From a bacterium (GTDB lineage: Bacteria > Zhuqueibacterota > Zhuqueibacteria > Oceanimicrobiales > Oceanimicrobiaceae), in assembly GCA_046757165.1 (NCBI GenBank), contig JBHHXT010000059.1, positions 1 through 24,518 on the forward strand: a DNA stretch of 24,518 nucleotides, written 5' to 3'. Positions 926 through 22,582 of the stretch are shown here, one piece after another. Below the pieces are notes generated by a model. The model was given only the letters and a program-made list of their open reading frames with translations. It was not told the origin of the DNA and did not search any database. The translations under genes were made by a program, and so were the position numbers. The first letter of the stretch is position 1; every line of letters begins with the position of its first letter.

Positions 926-945
926 GGACGTGGGTTCGATTCCCG
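926..945 (+). other. tmRNA/tRNA T-arm-like fragment, possible att-site remnant
   Basis: GGACGTGGGTTCGATTCCCG resembles the ssrA 3' T-arm (GGACG[C/T]GGGTTCGA[T/C]TCCC). It lies about 50 bp past the end of the operon. No acceptor stem, CCA or RNA body flanks it. Confidence 0.4.
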
Positions 946-995
946 TTTGCACATCAAATGCGGTGATATCATAACCCGAGTCCCCAATTCCACGA

Positions 996-3900
996 CTACG
1001 GCATATCAACAAGTTCGGTAATTTTTTCCAGGAATTTTTTCTGCGCAGATTTAGAAAGCCCTTTAAACTTCTCGATAAACCATTCTAAAGCAAGCGATTC
1101 AAGACGCTCTTCAATACGACTAACTACCTTTGATAGTCGTATCCCATGCTCGTCCGTAAGTGTTGCCGGTGGATTTACGACTTTCGAGTGCAATCGATTA
1201 GCATCCCCAACAGACATTTTATTAATATCCAATACATTAGTCTCAATAGACTCAATCCAGGTTAAACTATCATGCTTCCGTTGTGTCGAGATATTGCCGA
1301 CAAAATTTTCGAACATCTCGTCAACCAGCCACGGCAGCGCCTCTTCTTCCCCAAAAGTAGCGTCAGCCTCTTGACGTAACTTCTCGGCTAATGATTCAAA
1401 TTCTCGCCAGGACAAGCTATTATCATGCAATTGATTATAATAGCGCTTGTATGCCTGCAGCGCTCGTTTCATGATGCGCAAATCATCGACATCTATTTCA
1501 CAGCCCTCGAATGCATTTATCAGGGACTCTATTTCCTCAATATGTACATTTAATTCTTCTTCTGTACTTATCTTAGAATTCCAGAGTCGTGAAGCGCGTT
1601 CCGTCAGACTAGCTTCAGCCTCCTGCAACTTGACTAAAAAATCCGAAAGGTTAGTACGAAGATCAGAAATTTCATTCATCTCAATACGTCGGGACATTCC
1701 CTGTAGTTTGGCAGAGAAATTTTTCCCCACATCCCTTAATCCTCGAATCTCGGCGACACGCATTAGTCGAAAGGCATCAGCATGTTGATCGAGCCAGGAA
1801 CGAATATCCCGAACTAACTGATTTGCCTCTGCAATCGTTTCCGCCTGCCGAATGACGTGTTTAGTGTGGCGTTCAAGTTCTTCCGACAGCGCAGTCAGTC
1901 CCAGTTTATTTAAATTACCACCAAGCAGACGAAGCATTTTATGCTTAAAATCTCCAACCACTTCCGGAGAGTCATTTGCAGGTCTTTGCCCTGCAAGCCA
2001 GTTTGGGAAAATCTGCACAACCATCTGGGCAGTCCGTTCGATATGAGGTTCCAACTCTTCAATCTGGTGTTTCTCCCAAAGTGGCGACTCGGCAATCATT
2101 CGCTCTTTTAAATTTAGAAGTTCTGCAGCTCCCCAACTTAGCAAGCTTACATTCTTCTTGTTTTCTCCTGTTTCAAGTTTGCTGAAGGCAGTATCTTGCT
2201 TTTCCTCCATTTTTCTAAGGGCCTTGACTGCTTCATGGGACTGGTCTTCAAGGTGGATGAAACGATAACTACATGTCGGTGGCACGGGAATACGTTCCTT
2301 AAGTTCCGAAGCCCTTCTAAGGAAAGAGAACTTGCCCATATAACTCTCTGCCTGCTCCCATTCATCCAGGAGATTCTCCCACTCTGACGATGCCTCCCCT
2401 ATAAAAGCCAACTCCACACTCTGAAGCGCGGCGATATCAAGAAACTTTCTCCTGAATACACCGTCCTGAAGCCACTGGGTAAGGGCATACTGCTGTCCAT
2501 CCCGAACTATGACAAGCTGTTCACTCCTTGGAGCCACAAAGACACCTAACAGCAATCCTGCGGAGGCGATATTTGCTCCGTAAGGGGGGAGACACAATTG
2601 CCTTAAAACTTCTCCAACGAGAAATTGTTGGTGGTCTGATTGGAGAATGTCATCCCATTTCTCGGTCACAGTTCGCGCAATTGGATGCGTTGGCCTTCTT
2701 GAAATTTTACCGGTTTTGGTAAAGACGGCCCATGAACTGTTTAGCGTTGTTAGAGCTCGATTCTTAATCTTGACCGGCTTTGAAATCACAGCATCGTAAT
2801 CAAGACTTCCCCTCAGTAAATCGATAATTAGTTCCTGACAACTGTCTGCTGCATTACCTCGAGCCGTTGAAAACCCATCAAAAGGAAATGGCAACGACCG
2901 CTTATATATCCGCTCAAACAGTTCCGTGCCGACCCGACTTAATCGATTGGCTTCGAGTTCGTCTTTTAGGGCTGTTATATATCTTCGCTGTTTGGTTAGC
3001 TCTTCTATCTGGCTTCGGACTACCTGGTGCATTTTCTCTTGGTGAGCTCCAATTAGATTGCCAAAGCGGGCACGGTCTTCCGCACTGATGGAATCTTCCA
3101 GGACCGCTAATTCCGCTAATGCTTGACCAAGTATTCCTTCCTCATCGCAAAGAAGAATGACAAGCATTGGCAGTGCGTTAACCCCAACACCAAGATCACG
3201 AATCGTCGCACGAAGAGTTTTCTTTACATCAAATGTAACAGTTTGAGGATCACGGCTCTGTTCAACATAGCAATAAATAACTGTTCCACGTGGCTCATTA
3301 ACATCAATGGCCTTCGTCCACCTATCTGCAGCGATTCTGATCTGGGGCTCAATGGTCTCTAAATTTGATGTCACTCCTTGATAGCGCCACTCTGTCGTAG
3401 TAATTGAATTTCTTTCGGCAAAATCACACTCCAAATCGCCGAGCAGATCACACCACTCTGCCGCCTTGCTGGCAAACAACTTTGCCTTGCCGCTTTCATC
3501 GTAGGTGCTCGCCACCCGCTGCCTGATGAACGAAAGAAACTGTGTGCGCGGAACCGCATCACCTAAAATATCAAACTGTTTGAAGCGCTCGTCCCACTCG
3601 AGGATATTATATTCATCTTGAAGCAGGTCGATCCCTTCACGAGTACGATAGCTTGACAAACCTGCAAACTTGGCCAATGCGTTGATTGACTCATCACGAG
3701 ATACAACCTGTAATCCCATTTTCGATGCCAAGACCACGGATCGCAGGATACGGGTAACATCTTCCGGTAAGCGTGCGCCACATCGGGCGTATACCGATGC
3801 ATAGGCGTGGGTAATTGAGCCTTGCTGACCGCTCTCCTCTGAAGAAATCAACTCTTGCTGAAGTTCGTCGGACCATAAACTCACCGGTGCTAGTACCCAT

Positions 3901-5294
3901 GTTCTCTCGCCCTCTGCCTCCAACTCCTGAGAACGCTGAAAAAAATCGCCAAGCAAGGTTAAAGCTGATCGTTCTTGCAGATGTTTCCCCGCAGCGGTCA
4001 AAGAAAAAAGAAACCATGTTGAAAGCGGTGAGAGAGGCCAACATCCTTTTCGGATAACTGTATGAAACGAATCAACATCCGTCCAAAGCCTGTAATTGCG
4101 GGACTGGGGGAACCAGCTATGCAGATCTGCGGCGATAGTCTGCGATTCCTCGTAGGCTTGTTCGTCGTTAAACCAGGAATCAAAGCCTGTTGTCTGTTGC
4201 TTCTCAATGAGATGAGCGATAAGGGTCTCTAAATTGATTGAAAGATATACCTTGCTGGCAGATTGATAGCGGGTGATGTACCGAAGGATGTCATTTTTAT
4301 ATTCTGGTGCAACTCGTTGCACGTAAGCGTTAAGCTCAAACTGAATGAATCCGACAAAGGTTGTGGTATCAGCATGTGCCTGAACCCCTTCGAATAAATC
4401 CTGGAGAACGCCGCTACCCGCAACCTGGCTCCGGACTGTGGCAAATTCGGTATAGCGACCAAATTCATCGAACAGGATGAGAGCATGCCTAAAAGGTTTG
4501 TCTGTTCCGCAATACTCACGGGACACAACATCAATCACGTCCCGTACTGATTCTCCACCCAGTGCACGAATGGGCATTCCTTGGCTGGCAAAAAATTCCT
4601 GAACTTTACCGTAAACGTGTTCATCCTGCTCTTCGAGTGCACCTAATATCGTATCAATGTCAGCCATATCAAAGCTGTCAAGCAGTTCCTCGGCCACACT
4701 TTCACCAGCCATACGAATTAGAGTTGCTGCTTGCTTGAAGCGTGGGCGTAAGTCATCAAGAGGACTGGTGTCTAAGTTCTTCGCGCGAAGCTGCAAAATG
4801 ACCTGTCGAGTGACCTCGGCCGTCAAATCGAAGTTTCGCATACCATTTAATGCAACAATGAGGCAAGGCCGACTTTCCTCTTGCAGCATAGCCTGTATTT
4901 CGGTACCAATATTTGCGTCAGCGGCTTTCATGGCAGAAATGATTGATTCGGCCGTAACACCAGATGGTTGGGAAAGAATCGTTGCCAGGGTAAGCGCCAA
5001 ATGCGATTTCCCTGTTCCATAACCAGCAATCGCTAAAGTGAAAGGTTGATCCTCAAGTCCAGAGCACCGCCGTACTATCTTACGCGCAAAGCTGGCTGTG
5101 TCCTGAAGCTGATGACCATGAGCATGCCCGATATCGTCCTGCGTCACGCCATGATATTTTGGCCCGTGGAACACAAAGGCCTCTGCGGCTTTTCGGCGTT
5201 TCTCTCCATCCGTCAGAAACCAATCAATACTGACGGCTCCATTAAAGAGTCGATCGCCTCGGAATTTTACTATGTCATGTAAGGTTAGTCGCAT
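996..5294 (-). CDS. Large P-loop ATPase, divergent SspC/BrxC-like paralogue with a long helical C-terminus (about 1432 aa)
   Basis: Walker A AGYGTGKSH and Walker B LILFDEFGRY. WPLSP and LQERSALTLL correspond to WPLHP and QNERSIFSYL of the 17513-20887 ATPase. ATG 5294 follows AAGGA at 6 nt spacing and is preferred over TTG 5300. Confidence 0.8.
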   Translation of the reverse strand: MRLTLHDIVKFRGDRLFNGAVSIDWFLTDGEKRRKAAEAFVFHGPKYHGVTQDDIGHAHGHQLQDTASFARKIVRRCSGLEDQPFTLAIAGYGTGKSHLALTLATILSQPSGVTAESIISAMKAADANIGTEIQAMLQEESRPCLIVALNGMRNFDLTAEVTRQVILQLRAKNLDTSPLDDLRPRFKQAATLIRMAGESVAEELLDSFDMADIDTILGALEEQDEHVYGKVQEFFASQGMPIRALGGESVRDVIDVVSREYCGTDKPFRHALILFDEFGRYTEFATVRSQVAGSGVLQDLFEGVQAHADTTTFVGFIQFELNAYVQRVAPEYKNDILRYITRYQSASKVYLSINLETLIAHLIEKQQTTGFDSWFNDEQAYEESQTIAADLHSWFPQSRNYRLWTDVDSFHTVIRKGCWPLSPLSTWFLFSLTAAGKHLQERSALTLLGDFFQRSQELEAEGERTWVLAPVSLWSDELQQELISSEESGQQGSITHAYASVYARCGARLPEDVTRILRSVVLASKMGLQVVSRDESINALAKFAGLSSYRTREGIDLLQDEYNILEWDERFKQFDILGDAVPRTQFLSFIRQRVASTYDESGKAKLFASKAAEWCDLLGDLECDFAERNSITTTEWRYQGVTSNLETIEPQIRIAADRWTKAIDVNEPRGTVIYCYVEQSRDPQTVTFDVKKTLRATIRDLGVGVNALPMLVILLCDEEGILGQALAELAVLEDSISAEDRARFGNLIGAHQEKMHQVVRSQIEELTKQRRYITALKDELEANRLSRVGTELFERIYKRSLPFPFDGFSTARGNAADSCQELIIDLLRGSLDYDAVISKPVKIKNRALTTLNSSWAVFTKTGKISRRPTHPIARTVTEKWDDILQSDHQQFLVGEVLRQLCLPPYGANIASAGLLLGVFVAPRSEQLVIVRDGQQYALTQWLQDGVFRRKFLDIAALQSVELAFIGEASSEWENLLDEWEQAESYMGKFSFLRRASELKERIPVPPTCSYRFIHLEDQSHEAVKALRKMEEKQDTAFSKLETGENKKNVSLLSWGAAELLNLKERMIAESPLWEKHQIEELEPHIERTAQMVVQIFPNWLAGQRPANDSPEVVGDFKHKMLRLLGGNLNKLGLTALSEELERHTKHVIRQAETIAEANQLVRDIRSWLDQHADAFRLMRVAEIRGLRDVGKNFSAKLQGMSRRIEMNEISDLRTNLSDFLVKLQEAEASLTERASRLWNSKISTEEELNVHIEEIESLINAFEGCEIDVDDLRIMKRALQAYKRYYNQLHDNSLSWREFESLAEKLRQEADATFGEEEALPWLVDEMFENFVGNISTQRKHDSLTWIESIETNVLDINKMSVGDANRLHSKVVNPPATLTDEHGIRLSKVVSRIEERLESLALEWFIEKFKGLSKSAQKKFLEKITELVDMP

Positions 5295-5304
5295 TCTCAA
5301 TCCT

Positions 5305-6144
5305 TTAGATTAAGTCTTCGTACATACGTCCCCACGTCGCGCCCGCAACGGCCCGAGGGCGCATTATCCACGGATTCATTTGCCGGTCAATCGCAAGAAC
5401 GCCTTTCCTTTCAAGTAGATCTATAGCACGGTGCGACTCGCCTATATTCCATCCCGGAATAGACTTCCATCCCGCGTTATGATCCAAGTCAGTAAGTGTT
5501 ATCTGAGTTGCTTTGGGAAAATGATCGGCAATAAGTTGCAGTATCCATGCACCGTACGCAAATCCAAATTCTTCAGCAATGGGCGCTGACTGCCTGACCA
5601 CTATGCCCGTATCCTCCGATAACACGCCGCAGGTATGAAAGGCCGCCTCATCTTCATACATTCTTACAATCGGCCCTATAATTCCTCTGCGCTTGCTGTC
5701 GTAAACAAGAGACAAATGATCTTCCAGCGCGGAACGTGAGAAACGCATTCCGAGAACCTGATTCCCGGCGAAAAAAGTTTGATACCAGGCATCGGCACCA
5801 GTCAACACCCCACAGAGATTAAGGTGAGCAATCCATTGTGTTACTCGTTCTTTGAGATGGGGGTCCTCCAAAAACACAATACGCCCAAAAGGGGTCAATT
5901 CCGGGCGTTTCACTGCTGAACGAGCATTCCCAGCCAACTGGATCAACCCCATGCCACGACAGTAATCTAAAATGGCGGGCACCTTGCCGCTGGATTTACC
6001 CGTAGGAATACCTGTAACAGCTGAAATGTCTTGATAATTACCAGTTTGACCGGAAGCGGCAAAACGCAACATGGCATTAATGTATTGACGTTCTGGAATA
6101 AATGTCCTATGGAAGTTGCGGGGAAGACGCATCGGCTTATTCAT
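5305..6144 (-). CDS. Divergent DUF4007/SspB-like winged-helix protein (279 aa)
   Basis: NFHRTF and LTPFGRIVFLEDPHLKERVTQWIAHLNL align by eye with FSGHQTF and VSSFGRKLLDEKNGWDPYLEDNASWWLLHWKL of the 20887-21783 protein. It has a similar size and the same position directly before an ATPase. RBS GAGGAG; 8-bp overlap with the upstream gene. Confidence 0.7.
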   Translation of the reverse strand: MNKPMRLPRNFHRTFIPERQYINAMLRFAASGQTGNYQDISAVTGIPTGKSSGKVPAILDYCRGMGLIQLAGNARSAVKRPELTPFGRIVFLEDPHLKERVTQWIAHLNLCGVLTGADAWYQTFFAGNQVLGMRFSRSALEDHLSLVYDSKRRGIIGPIVRMYEDEAAFHTCGVLSEDTGIVVRQSAPIAEEFGFAYGAWILQLIADHFPKATQITLTDLDHNAGWKSIPGWNIGESHRAIDLLERKGVLAIDRQMNPWIMRPRAVAGATWGRMYEDLI

Positions 6145-9100
6145 TGAAACTTCGCTCCTCTAAAGCCGTTATACGAATTTTCAAGGCTCTGGAAACAAGC
6201 CTCTCTCCGTCAGGAGAAAGGGTTTTACCTATCGAGTAGCACTCTCCCTTTGAGAGAGAAGATAGCTTTCGAACCCAATCATCCACTTTTTGCCGTGTTG
6301 CCAATGCAGCAATATCAGCAAATGCCTTCAACTCGGTATCAGCTGGTTTGAAAAAAAGCTTGTGTTCAGCCTGGAACATTCGGTCGCGTTCATCTCTTTT
6401 CATATTGCTCATGGTTTGAGTAGCAAGGATGAGCGAAAGTCCAAACTTTCTTCCTTCACGTAAATATTTCGAGAGGGGGCTACCCTCCTTATGATCCAAA
6501 TTCTGAACCTCATCGAGGACGATAACTTTCGGGTCTGTTTTTTTTCCCTTGGACTGTAGGTGGCCATATAGATCCCAAAGGATGAACTCTGTAATCAATC
6601 TACCTGAATACATATCCATCCCTGCAAGCTGGAAAATATTGCACAGCGGATCCTGTTTCAGGAAAAGGTGATCCCAGTCAAACCCTTCATTGCCAGATGA
6701 GAATGGTTGATCCAAAATAAAAGGTCGCAACTTGTTATACAGGGACTGGGCGTAGGTTTTATACCTCTTATCCTCGGCCATCGATTCGATCAGGGAAAGC
6801 ATGTGATCGAGATTCATTCCACTCTCCAACGAATCCACACCTTCCATGATCGCCCGGTGCAAAACACTGTACTGCTGATTACCAATATCGTACACTGAGT
6901 CAAACAAACCGGCGATCCGCTTGGCAATAGCATTCGAGTTCTCCCGAATAATAATCCCGCCATTGTCTGAAACCTGGGGAAGGAATGGGTTGATCGGCAA
7001 TGGTTCTTGACGGACCACATACTGTCGAGGATCCAACACTTCTTTAGCAACATCTTCCAGACGGTTGGGAAGGAATCCGTTCGTGTAATCAATGATCAGG
7101 CTATTCTGCCTAAATTTACTCATTTCGCAAAGCATGCACTGAATGGCATAGGTCTTCCCTTGGCCAGATGATCCAAAAATAAGCAGATGTCGATTTACCA
7201 GGTCGGAGTGGTCAAACTCCCAATAGACCGGCTGATCGCTACTGACGGTCTTCCCCAGCAAGATTCTGCCTAACCGATTCAAATCGCCGACCGTCTCAAC
7301 TGGCTGTTCGGGTGTAGTCTGAACATCAGTAGCCTCCACCGTACTGCCCATGCCGGCCGAAACTCGGGGTATTGTAGATTCCGGGGGGATATCATCTTTT
7401 CGATGAGAGAATGAACCTTGAGCCCCTGTATGTTCTTCAGTCACAATATCCGAAGAAGGTGTGTCAACATCTACCGCCGTTTCGATGGGAGCCTCATGGT
7501 TATCATCCTCGGCATCCTCATCCTCCCAAGGGGTATAGTCGTCATCGACTTCTGGCGGGATGATCTCCCCTTCCTCCACAACAATTTCGTCCCCTTGATC
7601 GCTGAATGCAGTCCAATCAATGTCTCCAACCTCGGGGTTGGTAATCAGACGACGGACAAAGCTGCCACCGATGGAATAAACATTTGCAGTTACAGGCGGG
7701 GAGCCTTCCGCGTTCCAATACCCTATGCGTTTAATCTCATCATTACGGTTGATCCAAAATGCAAATACCGACGCATCCCAAGAAACCTCGAAATCACCTT
7801 CGGCCAATCGTTCCAATGCAGCCAGAACATCAGGATATCGATTTTTGATTACCTCGGTCTTGCTCGCAATTAACCGGTGGAGTTGCATCCACCAGTAGCG
7901 CCTATCTGGACGCTCATCTTCAAGACTCACCCCACCGGTATCGCCCAGAAGCGGAGCAAATGCAGATGAGAGAACTTTCAACCCATTATCTATTTGGCTT
8001 TTGGCCTTGTTCACATGTTCGGACGACTGTTGCCCCAGCTTGCATTCGATGAGATGCATTTTGATATGGAGGCGATTACCTGACCCGATTTCGACCCGCA
8101 TCCACATCAGATCTGGTCTGCGCATATTCTCCGACAGATCAAACCAATGCCGATAGGCATCCAGAGAAATCAAGGATTCACATAACGGGGAATCATTGGC
8201 CTGAAGCATTTTTCTGGATAATGCATAAGCCATGAAGTCTCTGATATATTCATCGCCCACTCCGGTTGCCCGCACCAATGATAAACCAGAAAGTTCAGGA
8301 GCAATATTCAGGATGCCCTTGGCAACAGCCTCGCACTCTTCCGTACTCCATCCCGCACCGGATGCATAAAGCGATTTTATTGCAGCTTTTAAGCGATAGA
8401 GAATGTCAGCAAAAGAAAACTGTTCGGTTGAAACAGTATAGTTATCTTCTCCATGGCTACCAACCCCAGAACCAAACCCAATAATTTCCCTTTCATTGCC
8501 GCTTTCCAGCAAAGGGCTCTTTATCAGACGCTCATCCATGTTGGGGTCGATGCAAATGATCCATTCTGCCTTCTTGTGCAGACAATCGATCAGCCCACGC
8601 CATGGAGTAAAATCGCCTGCTCCGACAACAATGGTTCCTGTTTGATGTGTCCCTGACTGCAGGGAATGCAGCAGGTTTGCATGGTAAGATCCAAGAGCAA
8701 ACTGCCTATTGCTGACTACTCTCTTTCGGCGATACCTATCGGCTGGACTGCTGATGGTACAACATGCCTTTTCTAGAATCGGGAACTTGAGATTTCTGCT
8801 CGTAACATCGAAGGTATCCACCTTTTCAAAGCAGTTCACGCCCTCCCCGGCACCAATGAAATTGTAGAAAACTGCAATGTCGGCTTCGAACTGTTCATTG
8901 ATCAGCTTTTGAAACGAACTCAGCCCGTCCTTTTCAATAATCCGGTGGGCAATAGAAAACCGACAACGCCTATACAGGTCATACTTACTTTCAGTTTCAG
9001 CCGCCTCCCAGCGTTCACGCCACTGTTGAACCCACGAGGAAACGTCAGTCTCATCGTTTGATTCCGTAAAAAGCGTCACGCTAATGGCATACGGGCGATT

Positions 9101-13203: not shown

Positions 13204-15472
13204 CGGTCACCTCCAAACGTCCATCATTCACGGAAAAATGCTGTCTTCGGAATGTGTGGTCGGTCCTCAAACGAACCAGCATGATGCGGTCGTCGTCCGC
13301 CGGGATTGCACGCTCAAGAACCTGAGCCTTAAAGCGGTCCAGACGTTCAAGATAGGAGGCCTCCAGCACTTCGCCCAATTCACCAAAATGACGCATCATG
13401 ACATAGTCAAGAAAAGGCACCTTCAAGGGCAGGTTCACATCGTCGATTCGGTCTTTCCCGCACAAAACCAAGTCCTTGCGCTGTTCGCCCGCGGCGCTTT
13501 TGGTCACGTGAAGCTTCAGGGCTGTTGATGTACTCCAATCCACTTGCGCCAAGACGACCTGGGCGCTCTGACGCACCTCGCTTCGACGCCGGCTCAAGGT
13601 TACATAAAGCCTGCGGTCATTCTGCGTTGATCCTTCCGGCAACCGCACCCCGGTAAAATGCTCCTGCAGTACATGGTAGATCTTCCGTTCCAATGTCGTC
13701 TTTTCGTTGAACCCCAGTTGAACCTCAGTATTTTGCCAGGCCTGCCAATCCAGCAAAGTAGGTGAATTCAGATACTGACCCAGATAGTTCTTATCCTCCG
13801 ATTTGAATTTATACAGAAAAAAGAGCATGCGGCGAACCTGCTCACGCGCCTGATCAGGTGTCATATCGCCATACACCGTCTCGCGGGAACCGTGCCTGCG
13901 CAACTTTTCAAACTCTTCGTCCAATGTTTCAATTCCCAGCTTAATGGACGATCCGTAATTAAGCAGCCAGAGCCGATGCTCCCAGTGGGGAGATGGCCGT
14001 TCTCCAAAACCCTGTTTCTCAACTTCCAGCACTGCCTTCATTTCCCAAGCGGAAGCATCCGGAGCGCAACCATTGTCCCCAAAAAAACGATTAAAAAATA
14101 GATACTCCGCAACGAGGGGTCGTGGCCTTTGCTGCTGCAAGGCTTGTATATCGGCCTCCTCCAGTCCCGCGGTTACCAGGTAGGAGAGATGCTCCGTAAA
14201 CTGACGAATCGTAAGGCGAGTACCATATTCATACATCCTGCGGTAGGCGAGGAAAATACGACCCAGCACCCGGCCTTGCTCGCGCCGGAGCAAATCAACG
14301 TTGAAATAAATGGGGCAGGTTTCACTGCAATCGCACTTCCCACACACTGCCCAGCGGTCAGGGGACAGCATTTTCACGAAGATTTGCCGAGCCAGACTCA
14401 AATTATCCATACGAGCCAGATTAAATACACGAAATTCAATAGAATCCAGCGCGAGAACGGCCTCGCCACTGTCGGTGCTGATTGCATCAAGCACCTGACT
14501 CTCCAGGGAAACAGGATTCCCACCGAAATGCTCAGGGTGACGCTTAATCAGATCCAGCAAGGTTCCAGTGTTTGATACCAACAAAAACCTGCGTTCATTC
14601 CCGACAAGTTCGCTAAGCAGGGCGGAATCATCGTTTTTATCGCGCTCACTGAGGTCTTTTATGATGGATATGGAACCGACATCTTCTCGAATCCGTGGAG
14701 GGTCTTCCAGTGGCGCAATGGAAGCAAATCCGCTTAACCGTTTGTAGATCTCCAGCGCAAGGGTGGATTTACCATCTCCAGCATGACCCGTTAAAATAAC
14801 ATGGCGTCCATTTGGGGCTCTCAATTCCTCATGGATGATATCCGCCAGGGGATGAGCCACATGAATCGAGGCAAATTGGGCATTACAGGCCTGGGATTCA
14901 GCCAACGCATTTTCATTGCTTCCTCCGGAACGTTGAAGCGAATTGAGGTAGCCTACAAATTTGTTTGAACATTTAACATCTCCCGAGCTCTCATGCATTT
15001 CTTCAAATAACTTATTGTTAGGATTTGCAGCAGACAAACTGTCATCTATCGCATCAAATATGAGTGAAACAATCTCTTTCCGTTTTGTATCATTCTTCAA
15101 AGCATCAAATAAGCTATCAGATATCAAAGCATATTCCACCAACTCATCTAATGCGCCAGGGCCTCCAATTGTCTGTGTTGACCTGAGAGCTAATTCCTTC
15201 CCTTCCTTGGGCACCAACTTCCAAAATGAGGAAGTACGTAGATGGAAGAATGGCGTATGTGGCCTACAACTACTTTTAGTATTGGGCAATAACTCGGAAA
15301 GCAGATCAGAGAACATTTTTTTGAACGGTTCTCGAAAGAATATCTTTCCGGTTGAAAACTTCTGCTTCTCTAAGAGTTTAATCACAGATAACAACGCAAT
15401 CATTTTATGCGGATTGAAGGCATGCCCTCTCCAACCCAATTTGCTAATTTCCACTTTAAGGGAATCAAGCAT
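13193..15472 (-). CDS. sspF: PT-associated restriction subunit F-like (SspF/DndF-like P-loop NTPase) with N-terminal SBD-like domain (759 aa)
   Basis: Walker A VILTGHAGDGKST, then KDLSE, SNTG and the Cys cluster CGKCDCSETCPI, as in DndF-like proteins. Residues 1-150 carry PHKMIALLSV and TPFFHLRTSSFWKL, the SBD pattern. RBS GGAG; starts 3 bp after the desulfurase stop. Confidence 0.7.
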   Translation of the reverse strand: MLDSLKVEISKLGWRGHAFNPHKMIALLSVIKLLEKQKFSTGKIFFREPFKKMFSDLLSELLPNTKSSCRPHTPFFHLRTSSFWKLVPKEGKELALRSTQTIGGPGALDELVEYALISDSLFDALKNDTKRKEIVSLIFDAIDDSLSAANPNNKLFEEMHESSGDVKCSNKFVGYLNSLQRSGGSNENALAESQACNAQFASIHVAHPLADIIHEELRAPNGRHVILTGHAGDGKSTLALEIYKRLSGFASIAPLEDPPRIREDVGSISIIKDLSERDKNDDSALLSELVGNERRFLLVSNTGTLLDLIKRHPEHFGGNPVSLESQVLDAISTDSGEAVLALDSIEFRVFNLARMDNLSLARQIFVKMLSPDRWAVCGKCDCSETCPIYFNVDLLRREQGRVLGRIFLAYRRMYEYGTRLTIRQFTEHLSYLVTAGLEEADIQALQQQRPRPLVAEYLFFNRFFGDNGCAPDASAWEMKAVLEVEKQGFGERPSPHWEHRLWLLNYGSSIKLGIETLDEEFEKLRRHGSRETVYGDMTPDQAREQVRRMLFFLYKFKSEDKNYLGQYLNSPTLLDWQAWQNTEVQLGFNEKTTLERKIYHVLQEHFTGVRLPEGSTQNDRRLYVTLSRRRSEVRQSAQVVLAQVDWSTSTALKLHVTKSAAGEQRKDLVLCGKDRIDDVNLPLKVPFLDYVMMRHFGELGEVLEASYLERLDRFKAQVLERAIPADDDRIMLVRLRTDHTFRRQHFSVNDGRLEVTDVL

Positions 15473-15475
15473 AAT

Positions 15476-16639
15476 TCACTCCTGTACACACAAGTTTTTT
15501 CCGATTTCATTAAGAGACTGACTCAACAATCCAATAGCTTCTTTTATATCTTTATGAGTTGTGTCTCTCCCGATGGATATTCTTATTGTGCTTTTTGACA
15601 ATTCACTATCACATCCAATTTCTATAAGTACATGAGATGGCGTAACGCTTCCGCCTGAACAAGCTGCTCCCTTGCCAACGGACAAGACTTGTAATTTGTC
15701 GATGAGCAGATCAGCCGGAATGCTTGGGAACGCAATCGAAAACACCCCTGGTAAGCGTGGTGCACCTATTGAGTGAATAACGATCTTGGGGAAAACAGAT
15801 TCGATCTGTGCGACCAACTTTTTCTCAATCTTGGCAATTTCTGAGAAAAGCCCTTCTTGAATATATCTTTGACTTGCAGAGCATGCTTCCCCAAACCCCA
15901 CTATAGCTGGAACATTGCTCGTTCCCGGACGCAGCCCCATTTCTTGTCCACCTCCCCGGAATGGACGCGTCCATGGCCAACGCCGGGGCCCTCCGCGAAC
16001 AAACAGGGCGCCAACCCCTTTGGGGCCATACATTTTATGGGCGCTAAAGGAAGCAAAATCACAGTTGACCGACTGTACGTCAAAAGGAACCTTTCCCAGT
16101 ACCTGAGCAGCATCGGTATGGAAATAGGCTCCATTTTCATGGGCGAGATCCGCCAATTTTGCAATCGGCTGCAAGGTGCCCAACTCATTGTTGGCCGCCT
16201 GCACGGAGACCAGAAGGGTTTTCTCTGTAATCAAGTTCTGGGCGGCCTTGAGATCTGTCACACCTGTCCGGCTTACAGGCAATTTGATGACTTCAAACCC
16301 GTGCCCTTTGAGCAAACGCGAAGGCTCTAAAACAGATTTGTGCTCAATAGATGAAACTACAATCTGGTTGCGTTCGGTTCGCGGGGTCAGCAGTACCCCC
16401 AGAAACAGAAGGTTGTTGCTTTCGGTAGCTCCGGAAGTAAAGATGATTTCGGACGGATGGCAATTGATCAGGTTGCCTATCTGTTCTCTAGCCTTTTTGA
16501 TCGCAGCGGCGGCTCTGCGCCCCATGATGTGGCTGCTGGAAGGATTCCCGTATTCCTCATTCCAGTAGCGCCGCATGGCCTCCACCACCTCGGGGGCACA
16601 TGGTGTTGTCGCACTATGATCCCAATAAATCATTTTCAT
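15476..16639 (-). CDS. sspA: Cysteine desulfurase (IscS/DndA/SspA family, 387 aa)
   Basis: DHSATTP, YGNPSS, FTSGATESNN, EHKSV, HTDAAQ, the PLP-lysine motif SAHKMYGPKGVG and the catalytic Cys loop GAACSGG. Located inside a PT gene cluster. Confidence 0.93.
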   Translation of the reverse strand: MKMIYWDHSATTPCAPEVVEAMRRYWNEEYGNPSSSHIMGRRAAAAIKKAREQIGNLINCHPSEIIFTSGATESNNLLFLGVLLTPRTERNQIVVSSIEHKSVLEPSRLLKGHGFEVIKLPVSRTGVTDLKAAQNLITEKTLLVSVQAANNELGTLQPIAKLADLAHENGAYFHTDAAQVLGKVPFDVQSVNCDFASFSAHKMYGPKGVGALFVRGGPRRWPWTRPFRGGGQEMGLRPGTSNVPAIVGFGEACSASQRYIQEGLFSEIAKIEKKLVAQIESVFPKIVIHSIGAPRLPGVFSIAFPSIPADLLIDKLQVLSVGKGAACSGGSVTPSHVLIEIGCDSELSKSTIRISIGRDTTHKDIKEAIGLLSQSLNEIGKNLCVQE

Positions 16640-16645
16640 ATCTTC

Positions 16646-17491
16646 CTACAAATGACAGATGGTACAGGCCAGCTCTTCGCCATCGTCCAAGTCGCCATCC
16701 CAAATATCTTTCAGTTTCTGGTTTCCCTTGAAAGCCTTAGCTTCTCTGGATTTGCGCTTTTCATACTCTTCTTTTATTTGTGCTATCCGGTCTGGGTGCG
16801 CCAACTCATCCAGGCTCTCCCCCTGATTCCAGGTGTAGCGTTCACCTGTTGCCAGGTCAAATTTTTCATAGGATTTTGCTTTCTCAAAAAGGTCCGGATG
16901 ATTTTCCAACAGTCCCGCCCATTCGCGCTTTTGTTGAAAAAAGCAAAAGTAGCAGCCAGAACGGGAGCGCCAAGCGTAGTATTGGGGCAAACCCAATCCT
17001 GAATTCTTCAAAATCCGCATCACATCATCGTGCCGGATGTTGTCCTCTACAAAAGGCAAGACCGTCGTAACATTCGGTTTGGTAGAGATATATCCTTTCC
17101 GATGGGGTTCGTCTGCCCGGATACCAACATAGCTGATAACAGGATCATCACCGATATAGTCTTCGTAGGGTTTAAGTTTTAAATATTCAGTACACCATCT
17201 CGAGTCAGGCGAGGGTAAAAAACCTCTTTTCAACTGTAATATTTCATCAAAGCCATAGCCCGAAGAGTATTTTAGGTAATGAATTTGTTGCCCCAGATAG
17301 GCTTCAAGCTTAATTAGGTACTCATATGTTTCATCAAGTTCTTTTTCCGTATCACAGAAAACATATTCCACATTTGGTATTTTCCCACGCATATAAACAG
17401 CCAGAGCAGAGCTGTCCTTGCCGCCGGATAGCGCGATGATATGACGAACCGGTTTGTCGGTCTGATCGGTTTTCTTTTTGTTTATATCCAT
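16646..17491 (-). CDS. sspD: PAPS-reductase-family PP-loop protein (SspD/DndC-like, 281 aa)
   Basis: PP-loop IALSGGKDSS, VFCDT, RWCTEYLK, GIRADE, RSGCYFCF and C-terminal CTICHL. Lies between the SspC-like ATPase and the desulfurase. Confidence 0.88.
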   Translation of the reverse strand: MDINKKKTDQTDKPVRHIIALSGGKDSSALAVYMRGKIPNVEYVFCDTEKELDETYEYLIKLEAYLGQQIHYLKYSSGYGFDEILQLKRGFLPSPDSRWCTEYLKLKPYEDYIGDDPVISYVGIRADEPHRKGYISTKPNVTTVLPFVEDNIRHDDVMRILKNSGLGLPQYYAWRSRSGCYFCFFQQKREWAGLLENHPDLFEKAKSYEKFDLATGERYTWNQGESLDELAHPDRIAQIKEEYEKRKSREAKAFKGNQKLKDIWDGDLDDGEELACTICHL

Positions 17492-17512
17492 GACTTCCTT
17501 CCTAAACAGCCT

Positions 17513-20500
17513 CTAATCAAATTCAATTTGACCCAGCAATTCCCGCAATGCGGCTGCGAGCACGCGGGGGGAGCTTTTGCTTCCCAGCTTTTTGAGCTGG
17601 GGTTCCAGTTTTTTCCGCAATACATTTTTTTGCTTCATTTCAATAGCGGTCAACTCCGGGCCGCTATCCCCATAGTTATGCCAGGTTTGGCGGAACAGCT
17701 CGCCCATACCCTCCGCAAGGCCCTCAAAGCTCTGGATATCCATATCAGTCCACTCCTCGAAGGGGCGATTGGCAATCAGTGACAATGCGGGACGTGCATT
17801 GTCGCCATCAGCGATTCCATTGTTCACGCAATTAAGGAAGGGGGTCAGCACCTCGTGCTTAATACGCGGAGCAAGCCAGGTAGCCCTTCGCTCCAGCTCA
17901 TGCCATCCGTTCATATTTCTCGAAAGTCCACATTTCCCCAGCAATAGATTCCTGTTTTTCTGAAGGAGCTTCTGTGCATGGTTACGTAGCGTGGACAAGC
18001 TATTATTCAGATGCTCAAAGAAACAATCCATATCTTTTGTACGCTTCTCCCCCTGCATGAATGGGTCCAACCCAAAACAACGCGGAAGGTCGATAAATAG
18101 CAATTCCTCCGGAGAGGCGGCCTGCAGCAAGCAGTCCCTCATTTCCACTACAGCAGTATTCTTGATCTGTGTCGTTTTTAATGTAACGGGAGGGATGTTG
18201 TTCAATACGCGATATAAAGCTCGCACCACAGATGCTGTTTTAGCCGGTTGTTTAAAGCCTTTTGCCAGTCGTTCAACTACTGCCTTTCGTGTGCCATCCA
18301 ACCGTGCCCCCGAGACCGAAAATAGATCAGGTCGTCGTTGCAACAACTCAAGGTGAGCTGCCTGGATATCGGGAACAAAGGTGTTTTCGCGGTACAGGAA
18401 CAAATCATCCTGATAAAGCAGGTAAAAGGCCGTAAACAAAATAGGGTGAACACCATCGGGAAGGCCGTAAGGCACTTCCGCCAGTTTTCCAAACAAATCC
18501 ACTAGTTCCACCCGCTGGATCTGGTCTGAAAAAACCATTTGATCCATCAAGTCCCAGCAGAACCGCAAGTTACGATCATTGGATTTCGGTGGCGCTCGGA
18601 ATCTCCACTTTCCTGAATCAGAGTCGTAGTAGTGTATTCCTGTAGCAAGTAAAACCGATTCATAGACGCTACGCTCCGGGGGATATCCTTCAATCCCTAA
18701 GCATTCCTCCGTGCACCGGTCAAGCATTCGCTCCAGTAAACAGCGGCGGGCCGACGAAGCCGCTCCTGATATTTTTTTTCGTACAACCAATTCGTTCCGG
18801 ACATACGGACTTTTGCTGTAAATCTGATCGCAGACAGAAGAAAGCAGCCGGGCCACATCCACAGGCCTCTGAGGACGCTGATCGGCTCCATTCCAGATCC
18901 ACTGGCATGAATTACCAACAGGCGCAGATCGGGGATCAAGCAAGGTCTGTAAGAGCTGGGCAATATGCTGTTCCCCCATGACAAGCCGAAGACTCAGCTC
19001 ACGACGTGCAATTCTGTCATCCCGCAATTCTTCGGTATTCTCTTCAACCCAGCGAAGGCAGGCCACCTCCTCCACCACACCGCGCAACGCATCAATTTGC
19101 CGGGGTAATGCCACAATCAGCCGTTGCCGCCCCTTTGTCTTTTTCTTTGCTTCCGCTTCAAGCGCTTTTGAGCTTGTTTGTGGCAACAATATCAGAATGG
19201 TGCCCGCCGCATCTTCGGGACTCTCCGCGCCTTCCAGCACGTTCGCTCTCAAATTCTCCACATAGATCAGGTTGAAGTAGCGATGCACACCGGTTTTTAA
19301 GCTATGGCGCCGAGCAACAAGAGTCCGTTTGGGCAGATGATGGCACAATGCCTCCAAAGGAGAGGTACCCTCCATCTGGAGTTTCCGCCGCCCTTCGTTT
19401 ATCCGAGCCTCTATATCGACATCGCTCCCTTCCCAGACCCGATACGACCCATCCAATCGGCGATAGATCAAAACAGACTGCTGCCTCAAGATTTCAAGTT
19501 CTTGCTCAACCGTAGCAAAATTAGAAGTCGCGCAAGCAAGGGTCTGTGACGTAGCTCGCAATGGACATATTTCCGACAGCACATTCAGCAATGCAACAGA
19601 CTGAACCAACTCAAATTGAAATGGTGTGAGATGCTGCCTGCTGTTGATTATATCGTTCGCCTCCAGCAAGCGCTTTGCATGCGGCAATCGAGCTAGCCCA
19701 GCCTCGAAGTTGGCCAGCAAATAGGCGTATATGTGGTGCAGTCGAATAAAGTTATCACCCTCGCACAGGAAGTGATCAAGGTAATCTTGCAAGCCGAAAG
19801 GTTCATAACTGGTTAGGTACGAGAAGATTGACCGCTCATTCTGAGCCAACCGTCTGAACAAGTGCGGCATGGCCAACAAGACGCTGGGGTGTAGTGGCCA
19901 CGCATTACGCGCCATTTCCTTGAACTCGGAAATTTCAACCCCCAGGGGCAACGGCATTGCACCGTTTTGTATTTGGGTCACCGATTCATCTATTGCATCG
20001 GAAACAGATAGAGGAAGCGGGGCGGAAGGTTGAAGGGCGGATGCCACCATCTGCATGGTGGTTGCCGCCGACTCGCTAAACTGAATCGGCTGGAAACGCT
20101 CCTGAACCTTGTTCCATTCATTTCTAAGCGTTCGGTCAGAAAGTTCGACATAATCATCGAACATTTGGTGCAGGGTGATCAAAAAAAGCAACGGCGTTTC
20201 CGATTGCCGGTTGGCATATTCCGCCAGTTCCTGAAAAATATAGACATCCCCGCCACTCCGATCCTGAAGGGCATACTCCAATGTTTTCCCTGCTTCGTCG
20301 ACAAGAAGAAGAATACCAGCAAAACTCTGTTTCCCTGCTTCCTTCGTGAGTGCCGATAAAAACTTCAGGATGGTAGCCGTGTCCCGCCACGCATTGTCTT
20401 TAAGCGCAACCTCCATCCTCAGGCATAACTCCCGAACAGACTTCAACTGCTTCAGTTCCGACAAGGTAACGAGCATGCCTTCAAGAAGCAGCTGAGCGAC

Positions 20501-20887
20501 AGGCCGACGCCTTGCTGTTACAGGGATAGGGAGGAACCCTTCTCTCTTTCCTGGTGATTTACGAACGTTTTTCAGTTGAGACTTCAAATTTGACGGCAAC
20601 AGTTTGGCCGTCTGAGCGGCCTGCTTCGAGTCCTTACTGAGAAGCTGGCACAAGAAAACGGCAAACGCCGATTTTCCGGTGCCATATGGACCGGTCAAGG
20701 CAAATGCACGCTGTCCATTTTTTAATAGCAGCCCCTGGATTAGCCGTTCCAATGAGTTGGCTACATTAGGAGTTAAAATGTAGCCGGAAGAGTGGTTCAA
20801 ATCGTGCCAGTCGTTATGAAGGTTAATAGATCGCTGAAAACGGGGAGCAACACCGGTATAGTGTGACCTTTTCAATGCCTTTGCCAT
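17513..20887 (-). CDS. sspC: SspC-like P-loop ATPase (1124 aa)
   Basis: RFQRSINL, Walker A LTGPYGTGKS, Walker B LLLVDEAGK, ITLHQ, WNKVQERF, WPLHP and AQNERSIFSYL. TAATG coupling to the DUF4007 gene. Confidence 0.82.
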   Translation of the reverse strand: MAKALKRSHYTGVAPRFQRSINLHNDWHDLNHSSGYILTPNVANSLERLIQGLLLKNGQRAFALTGPYGTGKSAFAVFLCQLLSKDSKQAAQTAKLLPSNLKSQLKNVRKSPGKREGFLPIPVTARRRPVAQLLLEGMLVTLSELKQLKSVRELCLRMEVALKDNAWRDTATILKFLSALTKEAGKQSFAGILLLVDEAGKTLEYALQDRSGGDVYIFQELAEYANRQSETPLLFLITLHQMFDDYVELSDRTLRNEWNKVQERFQPIQFSESAATTMQMVASALQPSAPLPLSVSDAIDESVTQIQNGAMPLPLGVEISEFKEMARNAWPLHPSVLLAMPHLFRRLAQNERSIFSYLTSYEPFGLQDYLDHFLCEGDNFIRLHHIYAYLLANFEAGLARLPHAKRLLEANDIINSRQHLTPFQFELVQSVALLNVLSEICPLRATSQTLACATSNFATVEQELEILRQQSVLIYRRLDGSYRVWEGSDVDIEARINEGRRKLQMEGTSPLEALCHHLPKRTLVARRHSLKTGVHRYFNLIYVENLRANVLEGAESPEDAAGTILILLPQTSSKALEAEAKKKTKGRQRLIVALPRQIDALRGVVEEVACLRWVEENTEELRDDRIARRELSLRLVMGEQHIAQLLQTLLDPRSAPVGNSCQWIWNGADQRPQRPVDVARLLSSVCDQIYSKSPYVRNELVVRKKISGAASSARRCLLERMLDRCTEECLGIEGYPPERSVYESVLLATGIHYYDSDSGKWRFRAPPKSNDRNLRFCWDLMDQMVFSDQIQRVELVDLFGKLAEVPYGLPDGVHPILFTAFYLLYQDDLFLYRENTFVPDIQAAHLELLQRRPDLFSVSGARLDGTRKAVVERLAKGFKQPAKTASVVRALYRVLNNIPPVTLKTTQIKNTAVVEMRDCLLQAASPEELLFIDLPRCFGLDPFMQGEKRTKDMDCFFEHLNNSLSTLRNHAQKLLQKNRNLLLGKCGLSRNMNGWHELERRATWLAPRIKHEVLTPFLNCVNNGIADGDNARPALSLIANRPFEEWTDMDIQSFEGLAEGMGELFRQTWHNYGDSGPELTAIEMKQKNVLRKKLEPQLKKLGSKSSPRVLAAALRELLGQIEFD

Positions 20888-21783
20888 TAGGCACCCCCCC
20901 GACGATAATAGTCGTCCAACAGCTGATCTGCATCTTCCAAGCTAATATTACAGTGTATCTGTGCTATTCCAGCGGACTCCGTAAAGTTAAATTGAGTTCC
21001 CCACTTCGGGCTCTCATGGAGTTCCTGAACAGCCTCAACCAATGTATTTTCGTCAAGCATAAAAACCTGTCCAGGACTATACTCTTTGTACAGCACTCGC
21101 TGAATTGTCATCGCACTCTTTTTTTCTTTGCCGAGATATTCACATATTGCATAACCGATGACTTCGGGGGGCAAAGAAGTCTTTCTGCCAATTGAAAACC
21201 TGAACATCCCTCCATCGTTCATTGGTTGAATAAGATTCAGCTCTTGCAACGGGCATTCGAAAGACTCTTCCCCAGCCTTTTTCTTTTCAAAACGCCGGGT
21301 ACCGCAATAGGACCGGATATAGCAATCAACATCCCGCATGATAATGTTGTCGGACGGGGCTTTCTTCCCCGCATCGACCAAACGCAGAGCGGCCTCAGCA
21401 ACATCCCGCTTTGAAAACTCGGGTTTTCGCAGATAAGAAAAAAGTGCTGTTCCGGCAGTTTGAAAAACGGGATTAGTAACAAGCTTCCAATGCAAAAGCC
21501 ACCAAGACGCATTATCCTCTAAGTATGGATCCCAGCCGTTTTTCTCATCAAGCAGTTTCCGTCCAAAACTTGATACCGTTCTATCCTCAAGAATACCGGT
21601 CATTCCACACCAATATTTGATACTGTCGACCATGTTTTTACCAACTCCAAGATCCACAATGGCATTGCTATCAGAGAAATGTTTTTTTCCATTAATAAAT
21701 TCAAATCCCTTTTCCAACCATCCAAACCTCAAAACAAAGGTCTGGTGTCCAGAAAATTTGCATCTTTTTTTAAAGTTTTTCAT
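20887..21783 (-). CDS. sspB: DUF4007 family protein (SspB-like, 298 aa)
   Basis: Typical DUF4007 motifs FSGHQTFVLRFGWLEKG, LGVGKNMVDSIKYW, DPYLED...WLLHWKL and FECPLQELNLI. Confidence 0.88.
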   Translation of the reverse strand: MKNFKKRCKFSGHQTFVLRFGWLEKGFEFINGKKHFSDSNAIVDLGVGKNMVDSIKYWCGMTGILEDRTVSSFGRKLLDEKNGWDPYLEDNASWWLLHWKLVTNPVFQTAGTALFSYLRKPEFSKRDVAEAALRLVDAGKKAPSDNIIMRDVDCYIRSYCGTRRFEKKKAGEESFECPLQELNLIQPMNDGGMFRFSIGRKTSLPPEVIGYAICEYLGKEKKSAMTIQRVLYKEYSPGQVFMLDENTLVEAVQELHESPKWGTQFNFTESAGIAQIHCNISLEDADQLLDDYYRRGGA

Positions 21784-21986
21784 TTGTTAGTTGTCCGATT
21801 GTTCGATACACTTGCGCCACCAGCCTTCACCCACTCGTCCACCTCTGAAAGCTTGAATCGAAAAAGCCTCCCAAGGCGATGGGCCGGCAAACCCATCTTC
21901 TCTATCCAACGATATACAGAGTCTTTATTCACGTCCAGATGCGCAGCCACATCTTCGACGCCGACCCATCGTTCTTCATTTGCCAT
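21780..21986 (-). CDS. Excisionase-like helix-turn-helix DNA-binding protein (HTH_17/MerR-like, 68 aa)
   Basis: ERWVGVEDVAAHLDVNKDSVYRWIEKMGLPAHRLGRLFRFKLSEVDEWV is a typical Xis-family HTH. ATG 21986 follows GAGGA. Its stop overlaps the next start (ATGA). Confidence 0.9.
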   Translation of the reverse strand: MANEERWVGVEDVAAHLDVNKDSVYRWIEKMGLPAHRLGRLFRFKLSEVDEWVKAGGASVSNNRTTNK

Positions 21987-22041
21987 TTCGTTCCTCTTCA
22001 CCAGTTGTCGGTCAAATACCTATGAGCACCAATGAAAACAG

Positions 22042-22075
22042 ATTATAATATATATGAACTGGCCAATGCCGTCAA
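22042..22075 (-). promoter_or_regulatory. Putative sigma70 promoter of the defence operon
   Basis: Minus strand TTGACG (22075-22070), 17 bp, TATATT (22052-22047), with an overlapping perfect TATAAT (22047-22042). About 60 bp upstream of the HTH start. Confidence 0.65.
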
Positions 22076-22135
22076 GGACAAAACCAAACAACTTCTTTCT
22101 GTCGACTTGTTGGGAAAAGCAGTGACCTCGATGAG

Positions 22136-22582
22136 TTACTCTGGCCACGTCCCGTGCGGGAGAAGTCTCCGCGCCCAGTGCTTTTGGACACCAACAAACA
22201 CCCACGCCGGGATGATCTGCCCTGAGATACATACCGGAACGAGGACACGTTTGTAGAGACTTGAACCGCCAGGAAGGAATCCCTCCAAACGGTCTATGGC
22301 GGGAAGGCGGGTCTCTGGATCGTCGAAGGTGAGAAGCTCCCCGTATACGAGGCCACAGTCGCCCGCTGTGGCGTTTTCCGGTACCGGCTCAAGGATATAT
22401 GGATATGGTTGCCAAGTCCTCCAAAGCGCGCCTGTGCCTGCCTGTGCGTGTCTACACGCAAACAGGTGGCCGCGGACGACCATCTCTTTCAAGAGGATGA
22501 GACGGCGGAACCGCTTGTGGTTTTAGTAGCCTCGCTTGGATGTCGTAGAAAAAGGTTTTTTTTCTTTGGCTTGCACATTCAT
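22136..22582 (-). pseudogene. Degraded gamma-glutamylcyclotransferase (GGCT/AIG2-like) gene
   Basis: The C-terminal part has VYGELLTFDDPETRLPAIDRLEG...LYKRVLV...AWVF. In frame from ATG 22582 it reads ...FSTTSKRGY*NHKRF..., an eroded form of the family motif FVYGTLKRGxxNH, with TAA at 22525-22523. Confidence 0.75.

Follow-up and report, generated by a model that had tools for sequence, protein, structure and literature searches.

A predicted phosphorothioate defence operon with a sulfur-binding domain on F and a second DUF4007/ATPase pair beside its FGH-type genes

In the SspABCD-SspFGH system of Vibrio anguillarum FF-93 (Wang et al. 2021, PMC8092258) sspBCD lie beside F, G and H; the described SspABCD writers place a single-strand phosphorothioate (PT) at a short motif, CpsCA, and the described effector comprises three genes (PMC8092258). 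BREX (bacteriophage exclusion) type 4 and Ssp-linked BREX loci contain a phosphoadenosine phosphosulfate (PAPS) reductase, a DUF4007 protein and BrxC (Yuan et al. 2026, PMC12914056; survey, PMC12839542), and the sulfur-binding domain (SBD) SBDHga (PDB 8H0L; Hu et al. 2023, PMC10602919) is joined to a nuclease of its own and restricts DNA that carries PT. Here we describe an operon on the minus strand of a 24,518-nucleotide stretch, referred to as the window (positions 1 to 24,518 of contig JBHHXT010000059.1, assembly GCA_046757165.1), that is similar to each of these. It resembles the FF-93 locus in having sspBCD beside F-G-H, with a Walker A motif in F, an FtsK/HerA-like C-terminus in H and partial PADLOC matches to SspF, SspG and SspH, and differs from it in that two further genes, B2 and C2, follow H. 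It shares the PAPS reductase, DUF4007 and BrxC families with BREX loci, but has FGH in place of PglZ, BrxL and BrxB. Unlike SBDHga, its SBD forms part of F and lies in an operon that also encodes a PT writer. Our preferred reading, to which we assign a probability of roughly 55%, is that the operon serves PT defence and combines an ordinary writer with an effector of five genes, and that B2-C2 would act on the effector side as a loader or licenser of FGH.

The window makes up contig C59 of a genome of 6.1 Mb (531 contigs, 54% GC), and its GC content varies along its length between 43 and 54%. It contains the following features:

22047..22075, minus strand: predicted sigma-70-type promoter, TTGACG-17-TATATT (consensus match only, 10/12)
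21780..22001, minus strand: helix-turn-helix (HTH) leader, excisionase-type, MAD1-like (PF12728, E 8.8e-13)
20887..21783, minus strand: SspB (DUF4007), 298 residues, writer (PF13182, E 2.3e-77; PADLOC SspB, E 5.7e-79, 263 bits)
17513..20887, minus strand: SspC, ORC/Cdc6-type ATPase, 1124 residues, writer (PADLOC SspC, 960 bits; Walker A and B intact)
16646..17491, minus strand: SspD, PAPS-reductase-like sulfur-inserting protein, 281 residues (PADLOC SspD, E 1.6e-110, 367 bits)
15476..16639, minus strand: SspA cysteine desulfurase, 387 residues, accessory (PADLOC SspA, E 3.2e-128, 426 bits)
13193..15472, minus strand: F, 759 residues, an SBD plus an SspF-type P-loop core (PADLOC SspF, E 4.7e-27, 93 bits, residues 170-467)
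15038..15472, minus strand: SBD of the SBDHga type at the F N-terminus, about residues 1-145 (profile A4 against 8H0L, E 1.8e-31)
11587..13203, minus strand: G, 538 residues, SspG-like (PADLOC SspG, E 1.7e-20, 72 bits, residues 414-530)
6137..11590, minus strand: H, 1817 residues, a PD-(D/E)xK-type nuclease motif plus a C-terminal HerA/FtsK translocase (PADLOC DndH, E 1.9e-59)
5305..6144, minus strand: B2, 279 residues, second DUF4007 protein with an SspB/BrxA-like fold (AlphaFold2 (AF2) model and Foldseek)
996..5300, minus strand: C2, about 1432 residues (likely start ATG 5294), BrxC-fold AAA+ ATPase with a helical tail (AF2 model and Foldseek)

The ten open reading frames (ORFs) are tightly packed in the order HTH-sspB-C-D-A-F-G-H-B2-C2, from 22001 to 996. 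At the writer end HTH and B overlap by 4 bases and B and C by 1, and these overlaps are followed by gaps of 21 (C/D) and 6 (D/A); at the effector end a gap of 3 (A/F) precedes overlaps of 11 (F/G), 4 (G/H) and 8 (H/B2). The gap of 4 between B2 and C2 becomes one of 10 with the C2 start at ATG 5294, which is the same start as in relatives and has AAAGGA six bases upstream. A first-pass annotation of this DNA had described ten same-strand, abutting or overlapping genes behind one predicted promoter, and the coordinates and junctions bore this out. The end coordinate that it gave, 22075, corresponds to the -35 box of the predicted promoter, and this box is retained in a relative, L016. A scan of 20500-24518 returned 8 such sites against 3.8 +/- 1.6 in shuffles, so the promoter is considered a consensus match only.

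The PADLOC profile of the window proteins (strong for SspB, SspC, SspD and SspA, partial for SspF, SspG and SspH, and weak for B2 and C2 as SspB and SspC) agreed with the earlier call of an SspABCD plus FGH-type locus. Judged by sequence, the writer is an ordinary SspABCD, with sspB, sspC and sspD in one operon with the desulfurase, and SspD has the SGGKDS loop and the cysteine motifs.

Structural models supported the assignment of the last two genes as a second DUF4007/ATPase pair. The AF2 model of B2 had a predicted local distance difference test (pLDDT) score of 96.7 and its top Foldseek match was SspB (6JUF; template modelling (TM) score 0.67, 17% identity), with a score against PF13182 of 25.8 bits, where the family cut-off is 27. 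The AF2 model of C2, covering the first 1150 residues of the query, had a pLDDT of 85.7 and a predicted TM score (pTM) of 0.48; its top Foldseek matches were the BrxC structures 9ZLL and 9ZDX of Acinetobacter BREX (E ~1e-7), with ORC/Cdc6 proteins next. Searches of PDB sequences with C2 and C gave no real match. The motifs GYG[TS]GKSH and DE[FL]G and the presumed arginine finger were retained in 17 C2 rows and in a 110-row alignment, and rough ratios of non-synonymous to synonymous substitution (dN/dS), from two relatives, were ~0.08-0.18 for B2 and C2, similar to those of G and H. Intact motifs and dN/dS values <0.2 ruled out B2 and C2 as decayed remnants, while their being a local duplicate of sspB and sspC was ruled out by identities of only ~21% over 113 residues and 33% over 82 residues, together with the ATPase tree described below. 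The first-pass annotation had called the pair "B/C-like": the pair is real, but it is no local copy of sspB/C, and C2 groups with the BrxC proteins of Ssp-linked BREX loci. A complex prediction for B2 with residues 460-975 of the C2 alignment scored 0.58, and one unrelated control scored 0.61.

A survey of gene neighbourhoods, which had been proposed along with the first-pass annotation, found the same order in dozens of loci, placing it beyond chance. One relative, L016, shares the order of all ten genes with the window, at identities of 71-94% and with C2 cut by the locus end, and relatives in four sequencing runs cover 29-30 of 30 bins; these two observations ruled out a chance or chimeric assembly. 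Metagenomes were scanned with an alignment of G (57-87% identity to the window), and the best 80 of 153 confirmed stretches were kept, so that the counts describe the window's own clade only. Where a locus reached at least 600 bases past H (48 loci), B2 was present in 48 and C2 in 47, all but L026. For the 35 loci that extended 7 kb upstream of F, matches to B, C and D were found in 34, with sspD truncated in three near-identical loci among these, and sspA in 27. Merging at 95% DNA identity left 66 clusters, with B2 and C2 after H in 37/37 and B/C/D upstream in 26/27. The HTH gene, sspA and the SBD are accessory, and the conserved core is eight genes.

Genome searches extended these findings. 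The order H-B2-C2 was seen in seven of the eight GTDB loci found with C2, the eighth being too short. Searches of three samples of 401, 301 and 301 genomes with a B2 profile gave eight new strong matches, in all of which H precedes B2; C2 comes next in seven (one contig ends), and the writer and F-G are present in seven (one contig starts in H). The same gene order at ~30% identity was found in G365, through the SspG model in 401 genomes. Among 167 genomes of the window's phylum, C2 was found in one, the window's own, and near-identical copies of the operon are present in genomes titled as gammaproteobacterial and Syntrophobacterales, which indicated that the operon travels as mobile cargo. 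The F core matched 23 plasmid records, and 10 of these were fetched as a control (nine ssp-FGH loci and one MADS-like locus); B2, C2 and the SBD were absent from all 10. No C2 or deep B2 relative was found in the viral contigs searched. A deep B2 relative (P0313, WP_065536428.1) occurs in the cultured Planococcus antarcticus DSM 14505. As far as sequence can tell, the window system is a real, conserved and mobile subtype of the Ssp PT system, every part of which comes from a known family. Of the earlier proposal of an undescribed system or subtype, then, the subtype stands; it is no new kind of system and belongs to known Ssp PT defence.

Outside the clade, the nearest B2/C2 relatives with readable contexts were in loci comprising sspB-C-D, DUF4007, a small brxB-like gene, a BrxC-like ATPase, pglZ and brxL. 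Examples of this Ssp-linked BREX block are on plasmids of Thermomicrobium roseum and Pseudanabaena galeata and in the genomes G1232 and G1179. The Thermomicrobium plasmid resembles the window in having two DUF4007/ATPase pairs, and the window C2 groups with the second ATPase of such loci. Second-tier B2 matches were accompanied by PglZ and BrxL in 6/6 cases, of which one was again the Thermomicrobium replicon and two were fragmented. In a tree of ATPase domains (52 hand-picked rows, 12 of the 80 metagenome loci included), the 17 C2 rows joined the four Ssp-linked BREX BrxC rows with support of 100/98, while all 28 writer SspC rows were on one side (99/97), and an approximately unbiased (AU) test rejected the grouping of C2 with SspC (p-AU 0.0066). 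In a DUF4007 tree, B2 and 34 database relatives formed one group with a Shimodaira-Hasegawa-like approximate likelihood ratio test (SH-aLRT) support of 100. Hence, B2-C2 appears to have been derived from the BREX family, and C2 is no copy of the neighbouring SspC. The remainder of a BREX block was not detected: tblastn with Thermomicrobium and Pseudanabaena queries found no PglZ, BrxL or BrxB in the window, its genome or the 80 loci, the window has no PADLOC or Pfam match to PglZ or BrxL, and there is no second ssp, pglZ or brxL set elsewhere in the window's genome.

The inheritance of the pair was assessed from pairwise identities over 25 non-redundant complete loci, which form three blocks: B-C-D, F-G-H(N-part) and B2-C2. 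The identity correlation of B2 with C2 was 0.91. C2 correlated at 0.79 with the F core, 0.74 with the H N-part and 0.71 with G, as against 0.40 with B, 0.35 with C and 0.26 with D, and at 0.37 with the adjacent HerA domain; for B2 with D the value was 0.19. In addition, in L027, L032, L057, G881, G839 and G1412 the writer has been replaced (C at 25-35% identity) and the five downstream genes kept. C2 inheritance seems to track FGH more than the writer, as a tendency and not as strict co-descent.

The PT-reader-like domain that had been noted on F was confirmed. A profile (A4) built from 40 F N-termini, those of the window and of 39 non-redundant loci picked by motif pattern, matched a single PDB sequence, SBDHga1 (8H0L), at E 1.8e-31, and 39 of the 40 SBD members matched NF045808, under its whole-protein cut-off. 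The sulfur pocket of SBDHga from Hahella ganghwensis comprises H25, K26, L75, P76 and H79 (PMC10602919); the pocket residues of F are H22, K23, T73, P74 and H77, four of the five being the same. Across the 40 aligned SBDs, H22 was found in 38, K or R23 in 40, P74 in 40 and H77 in 33, and position 73 was variable. There are two SBD subtypes, and the identity between L016 and the window is 88% for the F core and 25% for the SBD. Of the 64 metagenome loci that extend 900 bases or more upstream of the Walker A motif of F, 51 have a full SBD; the domain is lacking or broken in the other 13, several of which have deletions or stops while the F core stays open. By these alignments the SBD is an exchangeable accessory that was swapped or lost in some relatives. 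The Walker A motif itself, G[HN]AGDGK[ST], was found in 25/25 aligned loci. Other additions to F are NERD and kinase domains in L012, and longer F proteins in G881, G839 and G827.

Several relatives show unusual arrangements around F. In L031:7288-10011 an IS4/5 transposase is directly ahead of an SBD-less F, with no writer in the 8 kb upstream. A free-standing SBD of 156 residues (L120:9344-9814, genome G1232) occupies the same slot as SBD-F, between sspD and a DUF4007-brxB-brxC-pglZ-brxL block. In L044:6269-8329, and also in L072 and L074, sspD breaks off after about residue 99, F has lost its 5' part, and HNH and HIT genes lie between the two; G, H, B2 and C2 remain open, and writer loss coincides with the damage to F.

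By analogy with DndG in the literature, G would be a triple winged helix; the G proteins of the window's clade form their own branch (9 rows, support 100/100). The best PADLOC match for the C-terminus of H was DndH, with other matches to SspH (E 1.6e-14, 50 bits) and to DptH in the PDB (7ES4, E 4e-8). The nuclease motif of H, P1159-D1160 and E1182-C-K1184, was invariant in 25/25 loci, and the HerA motifs are intact. Comparison of F, G and H with the nine fetched plasmid ssp-FGH loci, which do not include the FF-93 proteins, gave ~22-33% identity over short stretches, and the predicted F, G and H probably constitute a separate clade that is only distantly related to the plasmid SspFGH loci. A likeness between the N-termini of DndH and PglZ has been published; our sequence comparison did not reproduce it, as a profile comparison of the N-terminal 335 residues of H with one PglZ sequence gave no likeness (probability 0.2). 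The HerA domain of H correlates poorly with all other operon parts, and in L004:1-1266 the HerA part is 54% identical to that of the window while B2 and C2 are ~90% identical; together these observations suggest domain swapping in the HerA part of H.

We propose that SspA supplies sulfur, which SspB, SspC and SspD would place in one host DNA strand, the families being assigned by sequence and the chemistry being taken from the literature. F-G-H would damage unmarked DNA by means of the H nuclease and the HerA motor, whose motifs are present and whose activity is extrapolated from SspFGH. B2 and C2 would represent the BrxA-like and BrxC-like core of a BREX-type block, without BrxB, PglZ and BrxL, that became joined to FGH; C2 may show ATP-dependent binding to double-stranded DNA, with B2 tuning this binding, the pair thereby loading or licensing FGH on its target. 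The SBD on F would read sulfur and, we infer, most likely keep the effector away from self DNA that carries the mark. BrxA of type I BREX is a binding partner of BrxC and reduces the DNA binding of BrxC (PMC13326643); this supports the pairing of B2 with C2 and leaves open the side on which they act.

Several points weigh against an effector-side role for the pair. As BrxC is required for both marking (methylation) and restriction in type I BREX (PMC13326643), BREX ancestry is compatible with either side. Three genes are enough for the SspFGH of Vibrio anguillarum to work (PMC8092258), so no loader is needed in that clade, and BrxB, the bridge between BrxC and PglZ, is absent. The ATPase tree is unrooted, was built under LG+G4 without a mixture model, gave long-branch warnings and contains no type I BrxC rows; the grouping in the AU test was chosen after a quick tree had already been seen; and the deep branching of the DUF4007 tree had support of 22. 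Furthermore, supported splits of the B2 and C2 trees conflict with the F/G/H trees about as often as with the B/C/D trees, indicating that the pair recombines as its own unit, and the correlations are inflated by physical linkage and come from locus pairs that are non-independent.

The main rival is that B2-C2 is a second writer arm that shares SspD and SspA and marks a second motif or the opposite strand, with the SBD reading the product. The SspB fold of B2, the homology of C2 to SspC and the single predicted operon are consistent with this, as are reports that BREX type 4, which makes PT, includes a DUF4007 and BrxC pair (PMC12914056) and that type I BREX methylation needs BrxC (PMC13326643). 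However, the correlations with D were the lowest measured (B2 0.19, C2 0.26), and B2 and C2 are retained where B/C/D have been replaced. In addition, the pair is broken beside open F, G and H genes in G1277, which has two transposases in C2, and in L026, in which B2 is interrupted and C2 was not detected. These breaks, in two assembled metagenome loci only, argue against an essential self-protective role of B2/C2, and we consider a second writer arm unlikely. They also bear on the proposal that the pair is a brake or switch that idles FGH until infection, or else a separate sensor module or passenger beside H, since a strict brake should not be lost with FGH intact. That the two genes recombine together, as one unit, relative to both other blocks, that an ABC-ATPase/DUF4276 pair can separate H from B2 (L006, L007 and L016) and that BrxC has been proposed to balance idle and active BREX states (PMC13326643) would fit such a role; yet no B2 of the clade was away from H in the loci examined, a set distinct from the contexts of the deepest B2 relatives, and we regard this as the least probable of the roles considered.

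A different alternative concerns the SBD only and is compatible with B2-C2 loading FGH, namely that the domain keeps type IV polarity and aims the effector at foreign PT DNA of another motif, self-protection being that of an ordinary SspFGH. The characterised SBDs do belong to PT-DNA-cutting enzymes (PMC10602919), and the existence of two subtypes, the swap in L016 and the 13/64 loci in which the domain is missing or broken would be in keeping with this. Nevertheless, SBDHga, the closest relative of known structure, shows little sequence preference when it binds PT DNA, and it restricted an FF75-type CpsCA cluster tenfold (PMC10602919), so that type IV polarity would be dangerous beside the operon's own writer; the free-standing SBD beside sspD in G1232 also suggests a link to the host's own mark. 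We therefore view this polarity as doubtful, though less so than a second writer. Returning to the effector-loader reading, we speculate, with distinctly less confidence, that the operon is a natural BREX-Ssp-Dnd chimera with two paralogous DUF4007/ORC-ATPase engines, one writing and the other licensing FGH, which would share out the work that BREX leaves to one BrxC, and in which the SBD would be the first direct sulfur-reading self veto on FGH. If this speculation is correct, it would reveal how sparsely marked host DNA is spared by FGH-type effectors, and the BrxA/BrxC core would be a portable loader for unrelated nucleases.

How FGH distinguishes self from non-self with PT present at only 10-15% of the motifs (PMC8092258) is an open question, as is the way in which BrxC makes BREX change between marking and restriction (PMC13326643). 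The operon separates the relevant parts genetically: its reader domain, whose pocket is known, can be removed, and its two ATPase pairs can be deleted singly. Current PADLOC models would label it SspABCD-FGH, missing or mislabelling B2, C2 and the SBD. Furthermore, the slot after sspBCD accepts interchangeable effector blocks. The Pseudanabaena plasmids L096:13016-31610 and L107:6895-26438 share an ssp writer, a MazF pair and a Uma2 gene, and their effector blocks in the same slot differ, one being BREX-like and the other FGH with DUF262 and a kinase.

The locus was also compared with more distant systems. H, with its nuclease and HerA parts, resembles DndFGH and the HerA/FtsK capture systems (Rakesh et al. 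2024, PMC10853773), and the HerA capture systems are likewise coupled to an ORC/Cdc6 ATPase and a multi-winged-HTH protein (PMC10853773). The double scanners of the DndDE plus PbeABCD type provide a precedent for a second scanning pair on the PT nuclease side, but as described there the scanners are an ABC ATPase and DndE, or F and G are lacking (PMC10853773), and PADLOC gave no DndD or DndE match among the window proteins. The DndF fusions listed in the same source are to winged HTH, NERD and kinase domains, with the SBD treated as a winged HTH (PMC10853773). The BRC system has PglZ, a STAND NTPase, GNAT and TGT beside DUF4007, DUF6079 and HerA (PMC12839542); of these, PglZ, GNAT and TGT had no match in the window. 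MADS loci are similar in their F/G/H-like genes and perhaps in their MAD1-like HTH leader, and some relatives of the window have NERD-kinase extensions of F. We take L101 to be a MADS-like locus. It differs in having an N6-methylase, in lacking a PT writer and B2/C2, and in a G homologue on a separate long branch; no N6-methyltransferase is encoded in the operon, and the L101 methylase had no match in the 80 loci. Membership of BREX type 4, MADS or BRC was ruled out by the absence of the defining genes. The occurrence of sspBCD near brxCZL is mentioned in print (PMC12914056; PMC12839542). We found no description of sspBCD-FGH with a second DUF4007/BrxC pair, nor of an SBD-F fusion, in the literature covered, which excludes the supplements of PMC10853773 and PMC12839542, where they may be listed.

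The HTH protein scored 58.7 bits against NF047737 (MAD1), where the family cut-off is 80, and its relatives lead MADS-like, BREX-like and ordinary ssp loci as well. It is a generic defence-locus leader, accessory here, and is probably an autoregulator. The same kind of HTH leads a BREX-like block in G643 (L128:1995-14999) and G885 (L130), consisting of a DUF4007 fusion, a brxB-like gene, a type IIG-like methylase, a BrxC-like ATPase and PglZ. In L043:785-1753, L047:242-1258 and L061:346-1185, regulators with a WYL domain are encoded upstream of sspB.

At the other end of the operon, an AAA_21 ATPase and a DUF4276 gene lie between H and B2 in L006:7315-9140, L007:4649-6444 and L016:16472-18255, and the inserted ATPase is weakly similar to the ATPase of L101. 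A [quoted passage not shown] is encoded after C2 in G365 (L103:6052-8307) and nearby in G1013 (L119:9334-10671), and flanks several of the plasmid ssp-FGH loci too. The non-coding DNA that follows C2 in the window (417-1100) shares 78% identity with L002; LexA-like, DUF2924 and serine recombinase genes come next in L002, likely an integrative element. No tRNA was found in the window. Ahead of the operon, an ORF at 22136-22492 had no Pfam match, and DNA related to it was deeply covered in other sequencing runs; by eye, it presumably resembles the C-terminal half of a gamma-glutamyl cyclotransferase (GGACT), and GGACT genes are found ahead of the operon in L034 and L035. Lastly, an SbcD-like metallophosphoesterase is encoded on the opposite strand at 23779-24516, where it is cut by the contig end.

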